Shown here in pieces: positions 12,201-45,478 of a stretch of DNA of 64,000 nt; position 1 is the stretch's first letter, and each line of letters begins with the position of its first letter. This DNA comes from Bacilli bacterium (GTDB taxonomy: Bacteria; Bacillota_I; Bacilli_A; ML615J-28; CAG-698): the NCBI GenBank assembly GCA_050953045.1, contig JBMNLY010000001.1:74947-138946 (forward strand), read 5' to 3'. Position numbers and translations under genes: made by a program. A model generated the notes under the pieces. That model had not been told where the DNA came from. It did no database searches and worked only from the letters and a program-made list of their open reading frames with translations.

Positions 12201-14451
12201 GGTAATAGCTTCCATTATAATCAGTGATACGATTATCAAAAAGCTTGTTGATATTGGAGCAGATGCAGAAGGTAGTTTGGTTGTTCGTTATGAAAAGAAT
12301 GACCCTGCTTGGCATGGAAGTCAAGAAAACCCAGGAGAATTGAAAAGATTTCTGACTGCAGTCAATATCTTGCTTGATGAGGATGATGATCTGAACAATC
12401 CTGATGTAATCAGTATTGATCGGATTACAGAGTTGACAGAAGAAGAACTTGATACTTTAGGTAATTCTTATCTTATTGTTGATACGGCGGTAGAACATCT
12501 AGAAGAAATGACGGAACCCGAAGGCTCTCTTCATCAAACGCTATATTTACCGGAAATCACAAAAGATGAATATTATGGATCAACCGGTGAATTCAAAAAC
12601 TTCATGCTTGCCATCCAACACATTCTTAAAGAAAATACCGCTCCGGACGAGAAGTTAGAAGATTTAAAACACATTTCAATATCCTCATTAACCGGAGATA
12701 ACCAAAAAATAGTCTTGGCGTCTAGAGTTGTAAAAGAAACGATAATTCGTAACATTGAGATTGAAGCCGATAAACAAGCAGTTATTAAAATTGCTCCCGA
12801 ACTTAAACGAGACGGCCCGGATTATCAAGAAGGAATTTGGGACAATGAACTTCCCAATCTTCTGGATGCAATTAGCATCATCTTAGGTGAGGATGCTATT
12901 CTTGATGAAATTAATGTTTCCGCAAATGATTTTCTCGCTTTAAGCGATTCGGAAATTGAAATCATTTTAGATTCAAGGATTGTCAGTCATACTGCTGCTA
13001 AAACAATTGAAGAAAAAAGTAAAGATGACGCTTCCTTAATCAAATTACCTCAGGACCTTGATCCTAAGCAACCGGAATATGATGAATCTCTTTGGTATGG
13101 AGCTGAAGGCGAACTTGCGAAAGCGTTAAAAGCTTTGCGTGAATTAGAATTTTCAGATTTTAACAGCGACATTAAGATAACTGCTCTGTTTGAAGAAGCA
13201 AGAGGTACAACAGAAGAAGTCATTTTAGCATCTCGAGTTGTAGAAGCATCTGTTATCAACAAGATTGAAACCGAAGCAGCTCTTGGCGGTATGTTATACG
13301 GTACTTTAATAATTCCTGAAGGCGTCGTATGGAGTAAATCCGATAATGACAAAGGTGAACTTAGACGCTTCTTACTGGCGATAGAGCTTGTTCTTGGTGG
13401 CGAAGAGTTTGAAAATGCAACTTTCAAAGTCGAAAAATTCTTCGGAGAAGATCAAGAAACCTTACTAGATTCACAAATTGTAGAAGCATCTGTTATCAAC
13501 AAGATTGAAACCGAAGCAGCTCTCGGCGGTATGTTATACGGTACTTTAATTATTCCTGAAGGTGTTGTTTGGAGTAGAACAGAAAACGATGAAGGTGAAC
13601 TGAGACGCTTCTTACTAGCAATAGAGCTTGTTCTTGATGGTGGCGAGTTTGAGTATGCAACTTTTGAAGTTGATAAATTCCTCGGCGAAGACCAAGAAAC
13701 CTTACTTGCATCCCAAATCGTAGAAGCTTCCGCTATCTCCTACATCCGGAAATCCGATAAACTTATTAAACCTGATCCGGATGATGTGGCTACTTATTAT
13801 TATTTTGAAGATAATGTTTTGGTTTGGGATGGCGAAGACGGCGAACTCAGACGCTTCTTGAATGGGATTAAGACATTACTTGGAACTTCAACTTTTGCTG
13901 ATTTCGAGTTTAAGATGGATAATCTCTTAAATGTTGATTTTGTTAGTGCCTTAGAATCCCGCGTTTTAGAAGCCACTTTGACTGATATGGTAATGGGCTT
14001 GATTGACGGCGGCGTCTTGGCTGGTTTGATTAAAGAACCCGACAATGGTTATCAATGGTATCATCATGCGACAAGTACCGATCCTCTTGTTGGCGAAATC
14101 CGTAGTGGCGAGTTTAAACTCGACAATAATCCTGATTTCAGCCAGTACAGTGATCTTTCCGGATTCTTAAAAGCTATTCAAGCAATGAATGCGGCCGGAT
14201 TAAGCTACGATAATATTGATAAAGATACGATCGCGGAAGCGGATTCTGAGGAACTCGCAGATGCCTTCTGTGATTATTCGCGGGTAATCGGCGGTTCAAT
14301 CGCTAAGATGCTTAACTATGTGTTAAAAGATGTCGTGCATCCGTTAAAACCGGAATTTGATGACGAGGACATTAATTATCAAGAGAAAGGTAAAGTAATT
14401 TTAGCTCTTGAAACCTTTAAGTATTTTGTAAAGATTCAATTGGGAGAATAG
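9223..14451 (+). CDS. Giant (1742 aa) membrane protein: N-terminal CvpA-like 4-TM domain fused to a very acidic, degenerate-repeat region
   Basis: The first roughly 190 aa have 4 TM helices and the CvpA-type start (ILVSGALLGFLRGLFKSGYNLLVFVALLLTGWFLSP). The remaining roughly 1550 aa are D/E-rich with recurring modules (…GEL[KR]RFL.A…LL(G/D)(E/D)D.D.D…, …SR(V/I)V…I…IE…, LEEMTEPEG twice). Extended -10 (TGATATAAT) at 9184-9192 and RBS AGGAGA at 9211-9216. Confidence 0.7.
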   Translation: MDFDFDSIIQYFNIGIITILVSGALLGFLRGLFKSGYNLLVFVALLLTGWFLSPIIVRNLMDFDISKYYSINFRGIDITSINATIPGIIDNLVPQFAGLVTPGSSAYLLVQALIFMVLRIVVMILWLILMGTVFKFIFWIIYLIIKPKAKSKNGKKVGKGLVSRFGGLAVGTVHALLVVFLFSIALSGLTSIGSSLVEMLPETEPEVQETYLLVLNEEAATLQAQIPELEAYEEVFSFMASYRETFSGKISSFIKIGKDPADEYLFDELFSLKVRSHKVKLKSELQTALRAYALIVDNIEGEITIDSIASLDREILEDIFEEISKLKLIQIAVPIGVEYAYQSDLLNFLTEEEFAEAYEDLLEIDFSEEIKNLGNAFITGLELGLLNGENKLDFYLKLDGEKVEDLFTALGELKSVDTVAPIGLGFLLKQIKSNLEPLGIDSATLDLKDITWSSELANLGKIFNAFVALGISYENEKLTLSDITDDGINAFSIAVFNSKFLTNNNNALAKVIINILPDDYRSVLTIENFEKEDLSSLLSLAKIMADAGLLEDDLNVPTLLSEGNIDKIADAISKSKLLSANVSNLLKLLLDQMDLGFEISESSLEMNWYGEPGKTEIKALFTAARTLYDLGLSGDDFLTNLNPESIDDLTEKVTDSDVLMSNIGNMIDYLFVEGDFLGDLTIDTSSVADIDWKSDEGRAEFRNIMRAASTIVEANLHNNPEFETLSDGTEDVNEDGVVDEKDNLIGRLAESLSSSILIKNNLSNIISQAVPEQTGDLKIIFFDDPDDWTELEIESMLLSMKIITKKEKLPDDLFNLTDAELDIILSSLLVSRSIVQNLEEMTEPEGKLYGLIIIENVNEEDWYDRFDGEDRIYDGELRRLFNSGKILLGENPDFDDSNNLVSLNRILEIEDEEMDKLVQSTVLRDSIANKLIEKSEEDADLEVNLAMGDPSWTNEIKRLIKATKILLGDDADLDNINLDINTVKSLNDSDIDVVIASIIISDTIIKKLVDIGADAEGSLVVRYEKNDPAWHGSQENPGELKRFLTAVNILLDEDDDLNNPDVISIDRITELTEEELDTLGNSYLIVDTAVEHLEEMTEPEGSLHQTLYLPEITKDEYYGSTGEFKNFMLAIQHILKENTAPDEKLEDLKHISISSLTGDNQKIVLASRVVKETIIRNIEIEADKQAVIKIAPELKRDGPDYQEGIWDNELPNLLDAISIILGEDAILDEINVSANDFLALSDSEIEIILDSRIVSHTAAKTIEEKSKDDASLIKLPQDLDPKQPEYDESLWYGAEGELAKALKALRELEFSDFNSDIKITALFEEARGTTEEVILASRVVEASVINKIETEAALGGMLYGTLIIPEGVVWSKSDNDKGELRRFLLAIELVLGGEEFENATFKVEKFFGEDQETLLDSQIVEASVINKIETEAALGGMLYGTLIIPEGVVWSRTENDEGELRRFLLAIELVLDGGEFEYATFEVDKFLGEDQETLLASQIVEASAISYIRKSDKLIKPDPDDVATYYYFEDNVLVWDGEDGELRRFLNGIKTLLGTSTFADFEFKMDNLLNVDFVSALESRVLEATLTDMVMGLIDGGVLAGLIKEPDNGYQWYHHATSTDPLVGEIRSGEFKLDNNPDFSQYSDLSGFLKAIQAMNAAGLSYDNIDKDTIAEADSEELADAFCDYSRVIGGSIAKMLNYVLKDVVHPLKPEFDDEDINYQEKGKVILALETFKYFVKIQLGE
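13237..13760 (+). repeat. Near-identical 240-bp (80-aa) tandem repeats inside the giant gene (two full units plus a partial third)
   Basis: The unit starting ATTGTAGAAGCATCTGTTATCAACAAGATTGAAACCGAAGCAGCTCT recurs at 13237, 13477 and 13717 (period 240) with about 90% nucleotide identity. The protein repeat is IVEASVINKIETEAALGGMLYGTLIIPEGVVWS…GELRRFLLAIELVL…. Confidence 0.8.
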
Positions 14452-16268: not shown

Positions 16269-16465
16269 ATCATTTCAATTATAACATTTGAACGGAGGCA
16301 AGGCAATCAGTCTGAGCGGTTTTCATTATGTAAACGAATAAAAGTTGTTTTTTATTGGTGAAAAAGCTAGAAGCAATCGGAAATATTCTCTTTATTTTAA
16401 AAACCGGAAAAATATTTTCTACTTTGCATATACTAGATATGGATCCAAAGGAAAATTATGATATT

Positions 16466-17653
16466 TTGTTATGTTACAATACATTTGAGACCAAACCTTG
16501 TATAAATAACAAAAGTGATTTATACTCTCTAATGAAAGAAGATTCACCACATGATTCTTCACGAGAGGAGTATAAATCACATGGCTATTATATCACATAA
16601 GTTTCATGATATCAAAACAAAATTTCATGCTGTCTCTACATATCGTACCGGTCGTTATTCTGTTTATCACATTTGCCTGAAATACCATATCTCTAAGGCC
16701 TCTTTAATGCGCTGGAATAAAGCATTTGATGGTACTATTGAATCTCTTAAAGAGAAAAGTCGTAGACCACACACACCTCATCCTAGTATCCATACGGAAA
16801 CAGAAATATCTAAGATCCTTAGTTTGATTAAACGTAATTCTAATATCGGTCTGACTGAACTCTATACTAAACTCAGACAGCAAATAGGCTATTCTAGGCA
16901 TTATTGCAGCTTATATCGTGTTTTGATTAGATTAGGTTATTACGTTAATAAGTCTAAGATAAGAAAGAAATACAAGCCCAAAAAATATCACACACCAGAG
17001 AAACTTGGTGAAAAGTTTCAAATTGATGTTAAGTACGTTCCGACAGAATGTAAAGCCGATCCCAGAGACGATAATCGTTATTATCAATATACTGCAATAG
17101 ATGAAGCTTCCAGACAACGCTTCATGTATATATACAAAGAGCGTTCTTCTTATAGCTCAGTTGATTTTCTACGTAAAGCAATTGCTTTCTTTGGTTATGT
17201 TCCAAGAATTATTCAAACTGATAATGGCTTGGAATTTAGGCATTTTGGTGAAACAAATAGAATTCATCCTTTTGATTTAGGGTGTCAAAAACTCGGAATT
17301 ATACATAAAACCATTAAACCAAGAACTCCCAGACATAACGGAAAGGTAGAAAGAAGTCATCGAACTGATAATGAACGTTTTTACTCAAATCTAAAATTCT
17401 ATAGTTATGAAGATCTTCAGAATCAAATGAAAAGATATGTTTATAGATCTAACCGGATAGGGATGACACCCTTAAAGTTTAAAACTCCGATAGAAAAACG
17501 TAATGAACTCATGGAATCGAATATGGTAAATTGTTTATGTTTCGTTTGATTTCAAAATTGCCCATTATGCTAAGGGGGACACATTCCCCCTTAAACCCCT
17601 TTGGTTTATCTTCTTTTATTCTTTTTTGGTCTCAAATCATTTACAATCATACA
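16466..17653 (+). mobile_element. IS element copy 1 (1188 bp, single-ORF DDE transposase; IS481/rve-like; family undetermined)
   Basis: Boundaries come from comparison with the identical copy at 44152..45339. Imperfect terminal inverted repeats TGTTATGTTACAATACATTTGAGACCAAA / TGTATGATTGTAAATGATTTGAGACCAAA. Flanked by a 24-25-bp direct repeat GATCCAAAGGAAAATTATGATATT(T) at 16442-16465 and 17654-17678. Confidence 0.8.
16551..17549 (+). CDS. DDE transposase (N-terminal HTH plus rve integrase core)
   Basis: 332 aa. rve-core signatures QTDNGLEF and HNGKVERSHRT. True start may be the downstream ATG (MAIISHKF…). Confidence 0.85.
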   Translation: MILHERSINHMAIISHKFHDIKTKFHAVSTYRTGRYSVYHICLKYHISKASLMRWNKAFDGTIESLKEKSRRPHTPHPSIHTETEISKILSLIKRNSNIGLTELYTKLRQQIGYSRHYCSLYRVLIRLGYYVNKSKIRKKYKPKKYHTPEKLGEKFQIDVKYVPTECKADPRDDNRYYQYTAIDEASRQRFMYIYKERSSYSSVDFLRKAIAFFGYVPRIIQTDNGLEFRHFGETNRIHPFDLGCQKLGIIHKTIKPRTPRHNGKVERSHRTDNERFYSNLKFYSYEDLQNQMKRYVYRSNRIGMTPLKFKTPIEKRNELMESNMVNCLCFV

Positions 17654-17728
17654 GATCCAAAGGAAAATTATGATATTTAATCTTGAATTACGGAGAAAAA
17701 TTTGTTATAATAACAGAGGCTGATATAC

Positions 17729-17802
17729 GGCTCCATAGCCAAGTGGTAAGGCAACGGTCTGCAACACCGTGAGCACCAGTTCAAATCTGGTTGGAGCCTC
17801 CA
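17729..17802 (+). tRNA. tRNA-Cys (anticodon GCA)
   Basis: Cloverleaf: acceptor GGCTCCA/TGGAGCC, 3-bp D stem, anticodon stem ACGGT/ACCGT with loop CTGCAAC, T arm ACCAG-TTCAAAT-CTGGT, encoded CCA. Extended -10 (TGTTATAAT) at 17703-17711 just upstream. Confidence 0.8.
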
Positions 17803-43898: not shown

Positions 43899-44151
43899 AT
43901 GTTTATATTAAACATCAAATGAATTTTAATAAGAACAATTTACATCAATCAATCCTCCAAAATACGAACAATTTTTGAAACTCGTATAAAATCATAAAAG
44001 CAAGTTTATAAATCCTATCTCAGTTACTTATTTAATCATCATTTTCCTCTTCATGTAAAGTAGGTTAAGGATGCTATAATTGCCGCGACATCTTTTGATT
44101 TTAATAAAACTATTAATTTTTAATAATTTGTGATAAAAATACTGAAAACAT

Positions 44152-45339
44152 TGTATGATTGTAAATGATTTGAGACCAAAAAAGAATAAAAGAAGATAAA
44201 CCAAAGGGGTTTAAGGGGGAATGTGTCCCCCTTAGCATAATGGGCAATTTTGAAATCAAACGAAACATAAACAATTTACCATATTCGATTCCATGAGTTC
44301 ATTACGTTTTTCTATCGGAGTTTTAAACTTTAAGGGTGTCATCCCTATCCGGTTAGATCTATAAACATATCTTTTCATTTGATTCTGAAGATCTTCATAA
44401 CTATAGAATTTTAGATTTGAGTAAAAACGTTCATTATCAGTTCGATGACTTCTTTCTACCTTTCCGTTATGTCTGGGAGTTCTTGGTTTAATGGTTTTAT
44501 GTATAATTCCGAGTTTTTGACACCCTAAATCAAAAGGATGAATTCTATTTGTTTCACCAAAATGCCTAAATTCCAAGCCATTATCAGTTTGAATAATTCT
44601 TGGAACATAACCAAAGAAAGCAATTGCTTTACGTAGAAAATCAACTGAGCTATAAGAAGAACGCTCTTTGTATATATACATGAAGCGTTGTCTGGAAGCT
44701 TCATCTATTGCAGTATATTGATAATAACGATTATCGTCTCTGGGATCGGCTTTACATTCTGTCGGAACGTACTTAACATCAATTTGAAACTTTTCACCAA
44801 GTTTCTCTGGTGTGTGATATTTTTTGGGCTTGTATTTCTTTCTTATCTTAGACTTATTAACGTAATAACCTAATCTAATCAAAACACGATATAAGCTGCA
44901 ATAATGCCTAGAATAGCCTATTTGCTGTCTGAGTTTAGTATAGAGTTCAGTCAGACCGATATTAGAATTACGTTTAATCAAACTAAGGATCTTAGATATT
45001 TCTGTTTCCGTATGGATACTAGGATGAGGTGTGTGTGGTCTACGACTTTTCTCTTTAAGAGATTCAATAGTACCATCAAATGCTTTATTCCAGCGCATTA
45101 AAGAGGCCTTAGAGATATGGTATTTCAGGCAAATGTGATAAACAGAATAACGACCGGTACGATATGTAGAGACAGCATGAAATTTTGTTTTGATATCATG
45201 AAACTTATGTGATATAATAGCCATGTGATTTATACTCCTCTCGTGAAGAATCATGTGGTGAATCTTCTTTCATTAGAGAGTATAAATCACTTTTGTTATT
45301 TATACAAGGTTTGGTCTCAAATGTATTGTAACATAACAA
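44152..45339 (-). mobile_element. IS element copy 2 (identical 1188-bp copy, inverted relative to copy 1)
   Basis: Transposase translation identical to copy 1. Flanked by its own 25-bp direct repeat TTTGTGATAAAAATACTGAAAACAT at 44127-44151 and 45340-45364. Confidence 0.8.
44256..45254 (-). CDS. DDE transposase (identical to 16551..17549)
   Basis: 332-aa translation identical to the copy-1 transposase. Confidence 0.85.
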   Translation of the reverse strand: MILHERSINHMAIISHKFHDIKTKFHAVSTYRTGRYSVYHICLKYHISKASLMRWNKAFDGTIESLKEKSRRPHTPHPSIHTETEISKILSLIKRNSNIGLTELYTKLRQQIGYSRHYCSLYRVLIRLGYYVNKSKIRKKYKPKKYHTPEKLGEKFQIDVKYVPTECKADPRDDNRYYQYTAIDEASRQRFMYIYKERSSYSSVDFLRKAIAFFGYVPRIIQTDNGLEFRHFGETNRIHPFDLGCQKLGIIHKTIKPRTPRHNGKVERSHRTDNERFYSNLKFYSYEDLQNQMKRYVYRSNRIGMTPLKFKTPIEKRNELMESNMVNCLCFV

Positions 45340-45478
45340 TTTGTGATAAAAATACTGAAAACATTTTCTTGTTTTTCTACAAAAAATTTAGTATAATCAA
45401 TAATGGTGTTTATTAATTTTGTAATTGGCCATCTAATTTTATGAAATCTTAGTTCTAAAGAAAAAGGAGATGATATTT

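Follow-up and report, generated by a model that had tools for sequence, protein, structure and literature searches.

Introduction

Classical IS481 insertion sequences (ISs) are known for NCTAGN targets, and IS1630 of Mycoplasma fermentans, a member of the IS30 family, makes long and variable target-site duplications (TSDs) of 19–26 bp. We describe here an IS481-related element that is present twice in a 64,000-nucleotide stretch of DNA (the window) from a Bacilli bacterium (contig JBMNLY010000001.1, positions 74,947–138,946) and whose insertions have TSDs of 25 and 26 bp beside predicted promoters. In the IS481 family as represented in ISfinder in 2022, TSDs are 2–15 bp in length, mostly 6 bp, and TSDs of 24–29 bp occur only in the IS1202 subgroup (PMC10045372). 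The IS1202 family has transposases of 400–500 amino acids and ISs of 1320–1990 bp, with direct repeats (DRs) of 24–29 bp in the IS1202 subgroup (bioRxiv 10.1101/2022.12.17.520857). Oriented insertion near sigmaA promoters, 15–17 bp upstream of the -35 box, has been described for the TnGBS integrative and conjugative elements and for ISs of the ISLre2 and ISKra4 types (PMC3942029).

We consider the window element to be an active IS of a large clade, related to IS481 but distinct from it, whose members make TSDs of 24–26 bp and insert at a fixed register upstream of promoters; we put the probability of this reading at about 0.85. Elements of the clade are 1.1–1.3 kb in length, have TGT...ACA ends, and encode one transposase of ~320 amino acids with two helix-turn-helix (HTH) domains and an RNase H-fold DDE core.

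Results

Two recent insertions with long target-site duplications

The window holds two copies of the IS, each 1187 bp in length, that are mutually inverted and 100% identical, as determined by repeat search and direct string comparison. The initial annotation had recognized the pair as identical but gave their length as 1188 bp and left an ambiguous "(T)" at one repeat, because one flank T was counted into the element. Copy 1 is located between a sigma-factor gene and a pyruvate kinase gene, and copy 2 between the gene for single-stranded DNA-binding protein (SSB) and that for H+-pyrophosphatase (hppA). [quoted passage not shown]

16467–17653, + strand: IS copy 1, ends TGT...ACA; reverse complement of 44152–45338; missing from the otherwise identical loci L092–L094
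44152–45338, - strand: IS copy 2, 1187 bp, identical to copy 1; missing from L085 and L087
16442–16466, no strand: left 25-bp TSD of copy 1, GATCCAAAGGAAAATTATGATATTT; identical to 17654–17678; single in L092, L093, and L094
17654–17678, no strand: right 25-bp TSD of copy 1, promoter-proximal, GATCCAAAGGAAAATTATGATATTT
44126–44151, no strand: IRR-side 26-bp TSD of copy 2, ATTTGTGATAAAAATACTGAAAACAT; identical to 45339–45364; single in L085 and L087
45339–45364, no strand: IRL-side 26-bp TSD of copy 2, promoter-proximal, ATTTGTGATAAAAATACTGAAAACAT

As first noticed in the initial annotation, the repeats (about 25 bp) are perfect and specific to each copy; string comparison gave 25 bp for copy 1 and 26 bp for copy 2. 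The latter length holds given TGT/ACA ends, and is 26–28 bp by sequence alone because the adjoining bases happen to equal the IS tips. The longest chance repeats between flanks of such size are 8–12 nt, which excludes chance for repeats of 25 and 26 bp.

Contigs of the same organism from other samples were found by exact-protein look-up of neighboring genes (contigs and loci with the prefix L are our own handles). The copy 1 site is empty in L092, L093, and L094, in which the 25-mer occurs once between flanks identical to those of the window, and is filled in L091 and L095. The copy 2 site is empty in L085 and L087, with the 26-mer occurring once, and filled in L083, L088, and L090. Neither insertion is present in contig DUTX01000159.1 of a metagenome-assembled genome (MAG). 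Because the empty sites carry the repeat once, the repeats are true target duplications, as had been proposed at the outset, and they show that integration involves a pair of strand transfers with a stagger of 25 bp (range, 24–26), giving a TSD of that length. The two insertions are recent, since they are still polymorphic in nature and the IS copies are identical; the window IS is recently active.

A promoter in fixed register beside the insertions

Flanks were scored by the number of matches out of 12 to TTGACA-N16–18-TATAAT, read outward from the IS, with a threshold of at least 10/12 or at least 9/12. At the higher threshold, 21 hits in the 53 IRL flanks of the genome set had a -35 start at 30–32 nt from the IS tip, with no more than one hit per position elsewhere. 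An in-register promoter was also found in 44 of 109 flanks in a second set (metagenome contigs fished with the IRL pattern) and in 9/9 IRL flanks of a third (contigs obtained by exact-protein look-up). After pooling and de-duplication, 91 of 162 IRL flanks scored at least 9/12 with a -35 start 29–32 nt from the tip (3.2% in control windows; P 3e-91). IRR flanks were in register in 15 of 86 cases (P 1e-9), an IRL versus IRR bias with an odds ratio of ~6 (P 2e-9).

The position of the promoter follows the length of the duplication. The -35 box starts at position 30 beside 25-bp TSDs (9/9) and at position 31 beside 26-bp TSDs (4/4), such that the hexamer lies 4 nt past the TSD in 13 of the 14 elements in which both could be measured. 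In these 13, the joint nearer the promoter keeps a constant distance of 4 nt upstream of the hexamer, and the 1 nt of play falls to the distal one. The exception is the single 24-bp TSD, for which the hexamer is at position 31, leaving a gap of 6 nt. The duplicated segment spans approximately -40 to -64 relative to the promoter, the zone of UP elements, and the promoter retains its native upstream sequence after insertion because 25 bp are duplicated.

A -10 box with at least 5/6 matches accompanies 44 of 55 in-register -35 boxes (80%, as compared with 7% in controls), an enrichment of TG is seen ahead of the -10 box, and an outward open reading frame (ORF) of at least 80 amino acids begins within 250 nt after 84% of in-register promoters. 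Judged from these sequence features, the in-register sites are real promoters of the sigma70/sigmaA type. The counts together show that the IS very often stands beside a predicted promoter of this type, in fixed register and usually on the IRL side, with the promoter pointing away from it. In L234 and L239, a relative with a 60% identical transposase is located directly upstream of a perfect TTGACA-17-TATAAT leading into rpoB, one of the promoters counted in the third set, so even promoters of essential genes serve as targets.

Both window copies conform to this arrangement, through the following promoters.

17683–17711, + strand: targeted promoter of copy 1 (IRR side), TTGAAT-17-TATAAT with an extended -10 TG; 10/12 in the scan
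45369–45397, + strand: likely targeted promoter of copy 2 (IRL side), TTGTTT-17-TATAAT; 9/12 by our own scoring

Each begins 4 nt past the TSD and is directed away from the IS, that of copy 1 into tRNA-Cys (17729–17802) and that of copy 2 toward hppA (ORF from 45470). Both promoters are already present at the empty sites, and so the IS came to the promoter rather than the promoter to the IS. All four distinct junctions of this IS (window copies 1 and 2, L001, and L002) are in register. The target DNA is AT-rich, with ~76% A+T in the 25 nt adjoining the IS. The initial description of the target as AT-rich and intergenic is correct in both respects but understated, the target being a fixed position upstream of a -35 box.

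Duplications across the clade

Relatives were collected from species-representative genomes, and their ends were located by an end-motif scan; generic local inverted-repeat alignment was unusable for this purpose, as chance inverted repeats prevail in AT-rich DNA. Perfect or near-perfect TSDs of 24–26 bp were found in 18 further elements of this collection, with 52–75% transposase identity, in separate MAGs and isolates, among them Peptoniphilus, Kallipyga, Ihubacter, Bacilli, Acholeplasmataceae-like bacteria, and Lachnospiraceae. Genomes and metagenome contigs together provided 66 complete elements with usable flanks, and the TSD was 24 bp in 1, 25 bp in 15, and 26 bp in 7 of these. These 23 TSD-bearing elements include both window copies; L223 (26 bp) and L235 (25 bp) were added later. 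Besides the window copies, such TSDs are thus present in at least 21 relatives (52–75% identity) in genomes and metagenomes of other Bacillota and Mollicutes-like bacteria. The 24–26-bp TSD is a property of the clade and not just of the two window copies, in agreement with the original proposal of a distinct subgroup.

More distant homologues (47–53% identity; L078–L082, L058, L071, L073, and L076, from Christensenellaceae and others) have no recognizable inverted repeats or TSDs, and may represent another type of element or copies that have been domesticated. Two of them, L081 and L082, have a small ORF upstream. In L167 (6306–6375), exactly 25 bp separate an IRR tip from the IRL tip of a second copy that comes after it, and the upstream copy has no recognizable IRL; the same target may have been used more than once, or the arrangement could represent a junction-like intermediate.

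Ends and transposase of the element

The terminal 29 bp of the IS form an imperfect inverted repeat, with 20/29 positions matching between IRL and IRR, and the end motif TGTnnnGTTACAATnnATnTGAnAC is kept in relatives. The internal features of the IS are listed below.

16467–16495, + strand: IRL, TGTTATGTTACAATACATTTGAGACCAAA, with TACAAT 8 nt from the tip; 20/29 in the IRL–IRR alignment
17625–17653, - strand: IRR, inward reading TGTATGATTGTAAATGATTTGAGACCAAA, with an outward-facing TTTACA 8 nt from the tip (at 17640 in the scan)
16581–17549, + strand: transposase gene of copy 1, 322 amino acids; the ORF also opens at 16551 (332 amino acids)
44256–45224, - strand: transposase gene of copy 2 in the 322-amino acid reading, identical to that of copy 1
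16587–16615, - strand: promoter-like site inside the IS, TTGATA-17-TATAAT with TG; 11/12 in the scan; at 45190–45218 (+ strand) in copy 2

The single gene of the element encodes a DDE transposase. Its start is most likely the second ATG, at 16581, which would give a protein of 322 rather than 332 amino acids; this start is favored by an AGGAG located 10 nt upstream of it and by the length of most homologues (317–327 amino acids). A near-identical database protein (P0001) likewise has 322 amino acids. Exact-protein look-up with the longest-ORF versions (the 332-amino acid transposase and a 478-amino acid pyruvate kinase) gave no match, whereas the second-ATG versions matched. Pfam identified rve, rve_3, and a weak HTH_32 domain, so that the single HTH plus rve protein of the initial annotation stands, apart from its probable length. 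The catalytic residues D149, D214, and E257 (numbered from 16581) are all invariant in the homologue alignment A1. A structure model based on 21 homologues (predicted local distance difference test score, 83.7) has two N-terminal HTH domains and an RNase H-fold core, with no C-terminal barrel. The closest solved structures in a fold search with this model were IS21 IstA, foamy-virus (PFV) integrase, and TnsB, which are generic neighbors within the integrase superfamily and gave no clue to target recognition.

The outward -35-like hexamer of IRR, TTTACA in the window IS, is often TTGACA in relatives and lies 8 nt from the tip. If the ends abutted, it and the TACAAT of IRL would form TTGACA-N16(+x)-TACAAT, an arrangement that is the hallmark of a circle-junction promoter and suggests, by analogy with IS3-type elements, a copy-out-paste-in circle. 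The internal promoter-like site runs antisense to the first part of the transposase gene. It faces outward through IRL, in the direction of the place that the targeted promoter usually occupies; a comparable site is found 110–125 nt from the IRL tip in ~11 of 62 relatives. This predicted promoter could yield an antisense regulator RNA or drive read-out transcription.

Family placement

The best family model for the transposase in NCBIfam is that for IS481 (NF033577; 193 bits, model positions 3–282 of 284), which supports the resemblance to IS481 noted initially, at a strength below the curated equivalog cut-off of 224. The second-best family model was IS21, at 70 bits, and none of the NCBIfam matches with E up to 0.01 was an IS30-family model. 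IS481 was the best model for all 21 clade members tested. The window transposase is 31% identical to one PGAP-annotated IS481 transposase and 27–31% identical to others, with which it is colinear. No close relative was found in the plasmid collection (best match, 31% identical), and the sole name from an NCBI source for a relative is the generic "transposase family protein."

The IS1202-family model (NF033594, "ISNCY_2") gave 38 bits for the window transposase against a cut-off of 250. As a positive control, an ISKpn21-type transposase taken from a poorly annotated plasmid record (OX030709) gave 465 bits, so the model represents the IS1202 family. The window transposase is 24% identical to this control over 228 amino acids. 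Seven residues past the catalytic glutamate (E+7), IS481 transposases usually have K or R and those of the IS1202 family Q (bioRxiv 10.1101/2022.12.17.520857). The window transposase has N at this position (GKVERSHRTDNERF), as compared with K in the annotated IS481 comparator and Q in the ISKpn21-type control (GRVERANQTLQ). In size (1187 bp, one ORF, TGT...ACA ends), the element fits the IS481 pattern of a single ORF, ~0.95–1.3 kb, and TGT ends. Its TSDs, at 24–26 bp in 25 elements, are outside the 2–15-bp range of IS481 and inside the 24–29-bp range of the IS1202 subgroup. By sequence comparison, the element is related to IS481, is not a member of the IS1202 family, and lies outside the curated IS481 equivalog, constituting a distinct clade with a TSD length like that of IS1202.

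Published flanks of IS1202 and ISTde1

The flanks in Supplementary Table 1 of the IS1202-family preprint (bioRxiv 10.1101/2022.12.17.520857) were scored in the same way as those of the clade. In the IS1202 subgroup, 28 of 37 flanks on the IRL side had a promoter of at least 9/12 with its -35 box at the first base past the DR (0–2 of 37 in controls; P 1e-39); IS1202 itself, in Streptococcus pneumoniae, is among the insertions with an abutting -35 box. The same arrangement without a gap occurs in 7 of 12 flanks of the ISTde1 subgroup, a partial sample. One copy of ISLaac1 in the same table has a DR of 28 bp and abuts a weak TAGAAA with TATAAT (10/12), and another has a DR of 17 bp and directly abuts TGTCAA (TTGACA). 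The difference between the two DRs, approximately one helical turn, fits a fixed proximal joint together with a distal joint that slips by a turn.

The preprint describes the IS1202 and ISTde1 subgroups as not targeting xrs sites, and mentions promoters in other contexts only (bioRxiv 10.1101/2022.12.17.520857). Promoters are not mentioned in PMC10132070, and literature searches by phrase, whether for duplications of 25 or 26 bp or for promoter targeting by IS481 or IS1202, returned nothing relevant. Among the later papers citing IS1202 in the literature collection searched, titles and abstracts do not point to promoter targeting.

Other features of the window

A tandem direct repeat of 240 nt (two copies, 84% identity) occurs upstream of IS copy 1 at 13214–13693, and is probably inside a very large ORF seen in L091 and L092. 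Just downstream of hppA, from ~47660 onward on the - strand, is a second, unrelated transposase gene, which also occurs in L083 (8160–8342) and which, by its predicted domains (HTH_21, rve, rve_3, and rve_2), looks IS3-like.

Discussion

Probable targeting of promoters by the clade

The fixed register suggests how target selection might operate. The transpososome would read the -35 region, whether by itself or by way of bound RNA polymerase/sigmaA, and this contact would fix the promoter-proximal joint, with the second active site attacking ~2.4 helical turns farther upstream. Insertion at such a position may be near-neutral for the host, and thus a "safe haven" for the element. The TTGACA of the target was also considered as a mimic of an IS end, IRR having TTGACA or TTTACA, but its orientation relative to the joint does not suit a simple pseudo-end model.

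Several observations weigh against this reading of the clade. Exact TSDs are missing from 43 of the 66 complete copies; three of these have decayed TSDs and the other 40 none. The copies concerned make up 22 of 26 in short-read metagenome contigs and 21 of 40 in the species-representative genome collection, and include four isolate drafts (L026, L039, L066, and L072). In addition, 44% of IRL flanks have no in-register promoter of at least 9/12, the promoters are all predicted as consensus matches, and the -35 box of copy 2 is weak (TTGTTT, 3/6), for which reason its promoter is missing from the calls of the scan tool. Survivorship, through the purging of insertions within genes, could also inflate the association with real promoters, but cannot produce a register exact to one base. 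As for the copies without TSDs, they likely result from chimeric joins across a multi-copy repeat or from recombination between copies. We suspect these causes because the better assemblies checked do have TSDs (the complete Ihubacter chromosome; one copy, L077, in a MAG labelled long-read; a 1.68-Mb contig; and the window); the in-register promoter is usually still present in the IRL flank of the TSD-less copies.

Alternative explanations

The repeats might be parts of the element ends, or attachment (att) sites of a site-specific recombinase, as their unusual length alone would suggest. The empty sites refute this, since each has exactly one repeat between unaltered flanks; moreover, the repeat sequence differs at each insertion and the sole gene of the element encodes a DDE transposase, and we give the idea practically no chance. 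Alternatively, the element could be an ordinary IS481-family member that prefers AT-rich intergenic DNA, with its link to promoters arising from purifying selection, under which insertions persist only where they spare genes and promoters. The A+T content beside the IS (~76%), the intergenic location of the window copies, and the 44% of flanks that score below 9/12 would all suit this account. Selection, however, cannot set the -35 box at one position (30 or 31, tracking TSDs of 25 or 26 bp), with less than 1% of hits at any other. Both window insertions, being polymorphic and identical, are recent, and both are in register; the IRL orientation bias is also hard to explain by selection alone. 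We regard selection as an improbable source of the pattern.

Assignment to the IS1202 family would have a different consequence, as a small member of its IS1202 subgroup would have the 24–29-bp TSD already known and there would be nothing new. The shared class of TSD length, the TGT ends, the overlapping hosts (Firmicutes and Tenericutes), and the promoter-adjacent habit in the published flanks are in keeping with such membership, as is one published tree in which IS1202 branches within IS481 (PMC10045372). The protein argues otherwise, with 38 bits against the family model (cut-off, 250; 465 for a true ISKpn21-type member), just 24% identity over 228 amino acids to that member, and N rather than Q at E+7. 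The element is also too small (322 amino acids and 1187 bp, versus 400–500 amino acids and 1320–1990 bp), and 4 nt, instead of 0, separate its TSD from the -35 box. Membership in the IS1202 family seems to us quite unlikely, and we favor a separate, promoter-directed clade related to IS481.

A possible shared rule and its significance

The order landmark–DR–IRL seems to be common to the xrs targeting of ISAba32, the promoter targeting without a gap of ISTde1 and IS1202, and the window clade with its 4-nt gap. We suggest, only tentatively and with more doubt than conviction, that docking beside a protein-bound landmark, which the duplication abuts on the IRL side, is a shared and unrecognized rule of the IS481/IS1202 lineage. 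Under such a rule, the window clade, like the ISTde1 and IS1202 subgroups, would have as its landmark the -35 box with sigmaA/RNA polymerase, and elements of the ISAba32 subgroup would have the XerC arm of xrs sites. The TSD classes of 5–6, 15–17, and 24–29 bp would then correspond to a second strand transfer at zero, one, and two helical turns from the anchor, and a long duplication would keep the promoter's own UP-element DNA.

TSD length serves as a family-level character and reflects how the transpososome is arranged on its target. With its uniform 25-bp stagger, a compact IS481-like element that has a single protein constitutes a third lineage in the 5/15/25-bp series, beside IS1202 and IS481EU, and the promoter register provides a physical anchor for this series that makes its geometry testable. 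Until now, targeting of promoter-upstream DNA had been described for no elements other than the unrelated, Mutator-like TnGBS, ISLre2, and ISKra4 (PMC3942029); its presence in the window clade and in IS1202 and ISTde1 flanks suggests a common safe-haven strategy. Should recognition depend on RNA polymerase or sigma factor instead of on DNA sequence, such elements would have single-gene transposases that are guided by protein. The junctions of clade ISs mark real promoters in uncultured Bacillota, and a single-gene transposase with predictable insertion upstream of promoters, which it does not destroy, could serve in engineering.

Comparison with known systems

Like IS1630, the clade makes long TSDs; unlike the clade, IS1630 duplicates terminator-like inverted repeats rather than promoter-upstream DNA. 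With TnGBS, ISLre2, and ISKra4, the clade shares insertion that is oriented and lies a set distance upstream of a -35 box. The transposases of those elements are Mutator/IS256-like as opposed to rve/integrase-like, and the distance from tip to hexamer is 15–17 bp as opposed to 29–30 nt; the likeness is one of convergence, not membership.

IS481EU/Banshee elements of parabasalids resemble the clade in having an IS481-like transposase, TGT..ACA ends, and a TSD class of ~25 bp (PMC10045372). They differ in being eukaryotic and in having TSDs that are mostly 4 or 15 bp, those of 24–25 bp being rare even within one family (PMC10045372). TSDs of the window clade are uniformly 24–26 bp, and its promoter targeting has no described counterpart in IS481EU/Banshee.

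The nearest systems are the IS1202 and IS481 families. The IS1202 family resembles the clade in its long TSDs (DRs of 24–29 bp in the IS1202 subgroup and 15–17 bp in the ISTde1 subgroup) and TGT ends, in the insertion of both subgroups immediately upstream of an IRL-side -35 box, as seen on re-analysis of the published flanks, and in the anchor–DR–IRL geometry of xrs targeting in its ISAba32 subgroup. Its transposases form another clade, as compared with which the window protein and element are much smaller, with a 4-nt gap in place of an abutting -35 box and N in place of Q at E+7. The IS481 family provides the best full-length model for the transposase and has the same organization, with one ORF within 1.1–1.3 kb, TGT...ACA ends, and HTH plus rve domains. 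From it the window clade is set apart by a score of 193 versus 224 bits, TSDs of 24–26 bp versus 2–15 bp (mostly 6), N at E+7 of the window transposase versus the usual K or R, and insertion that is directed to promoters.

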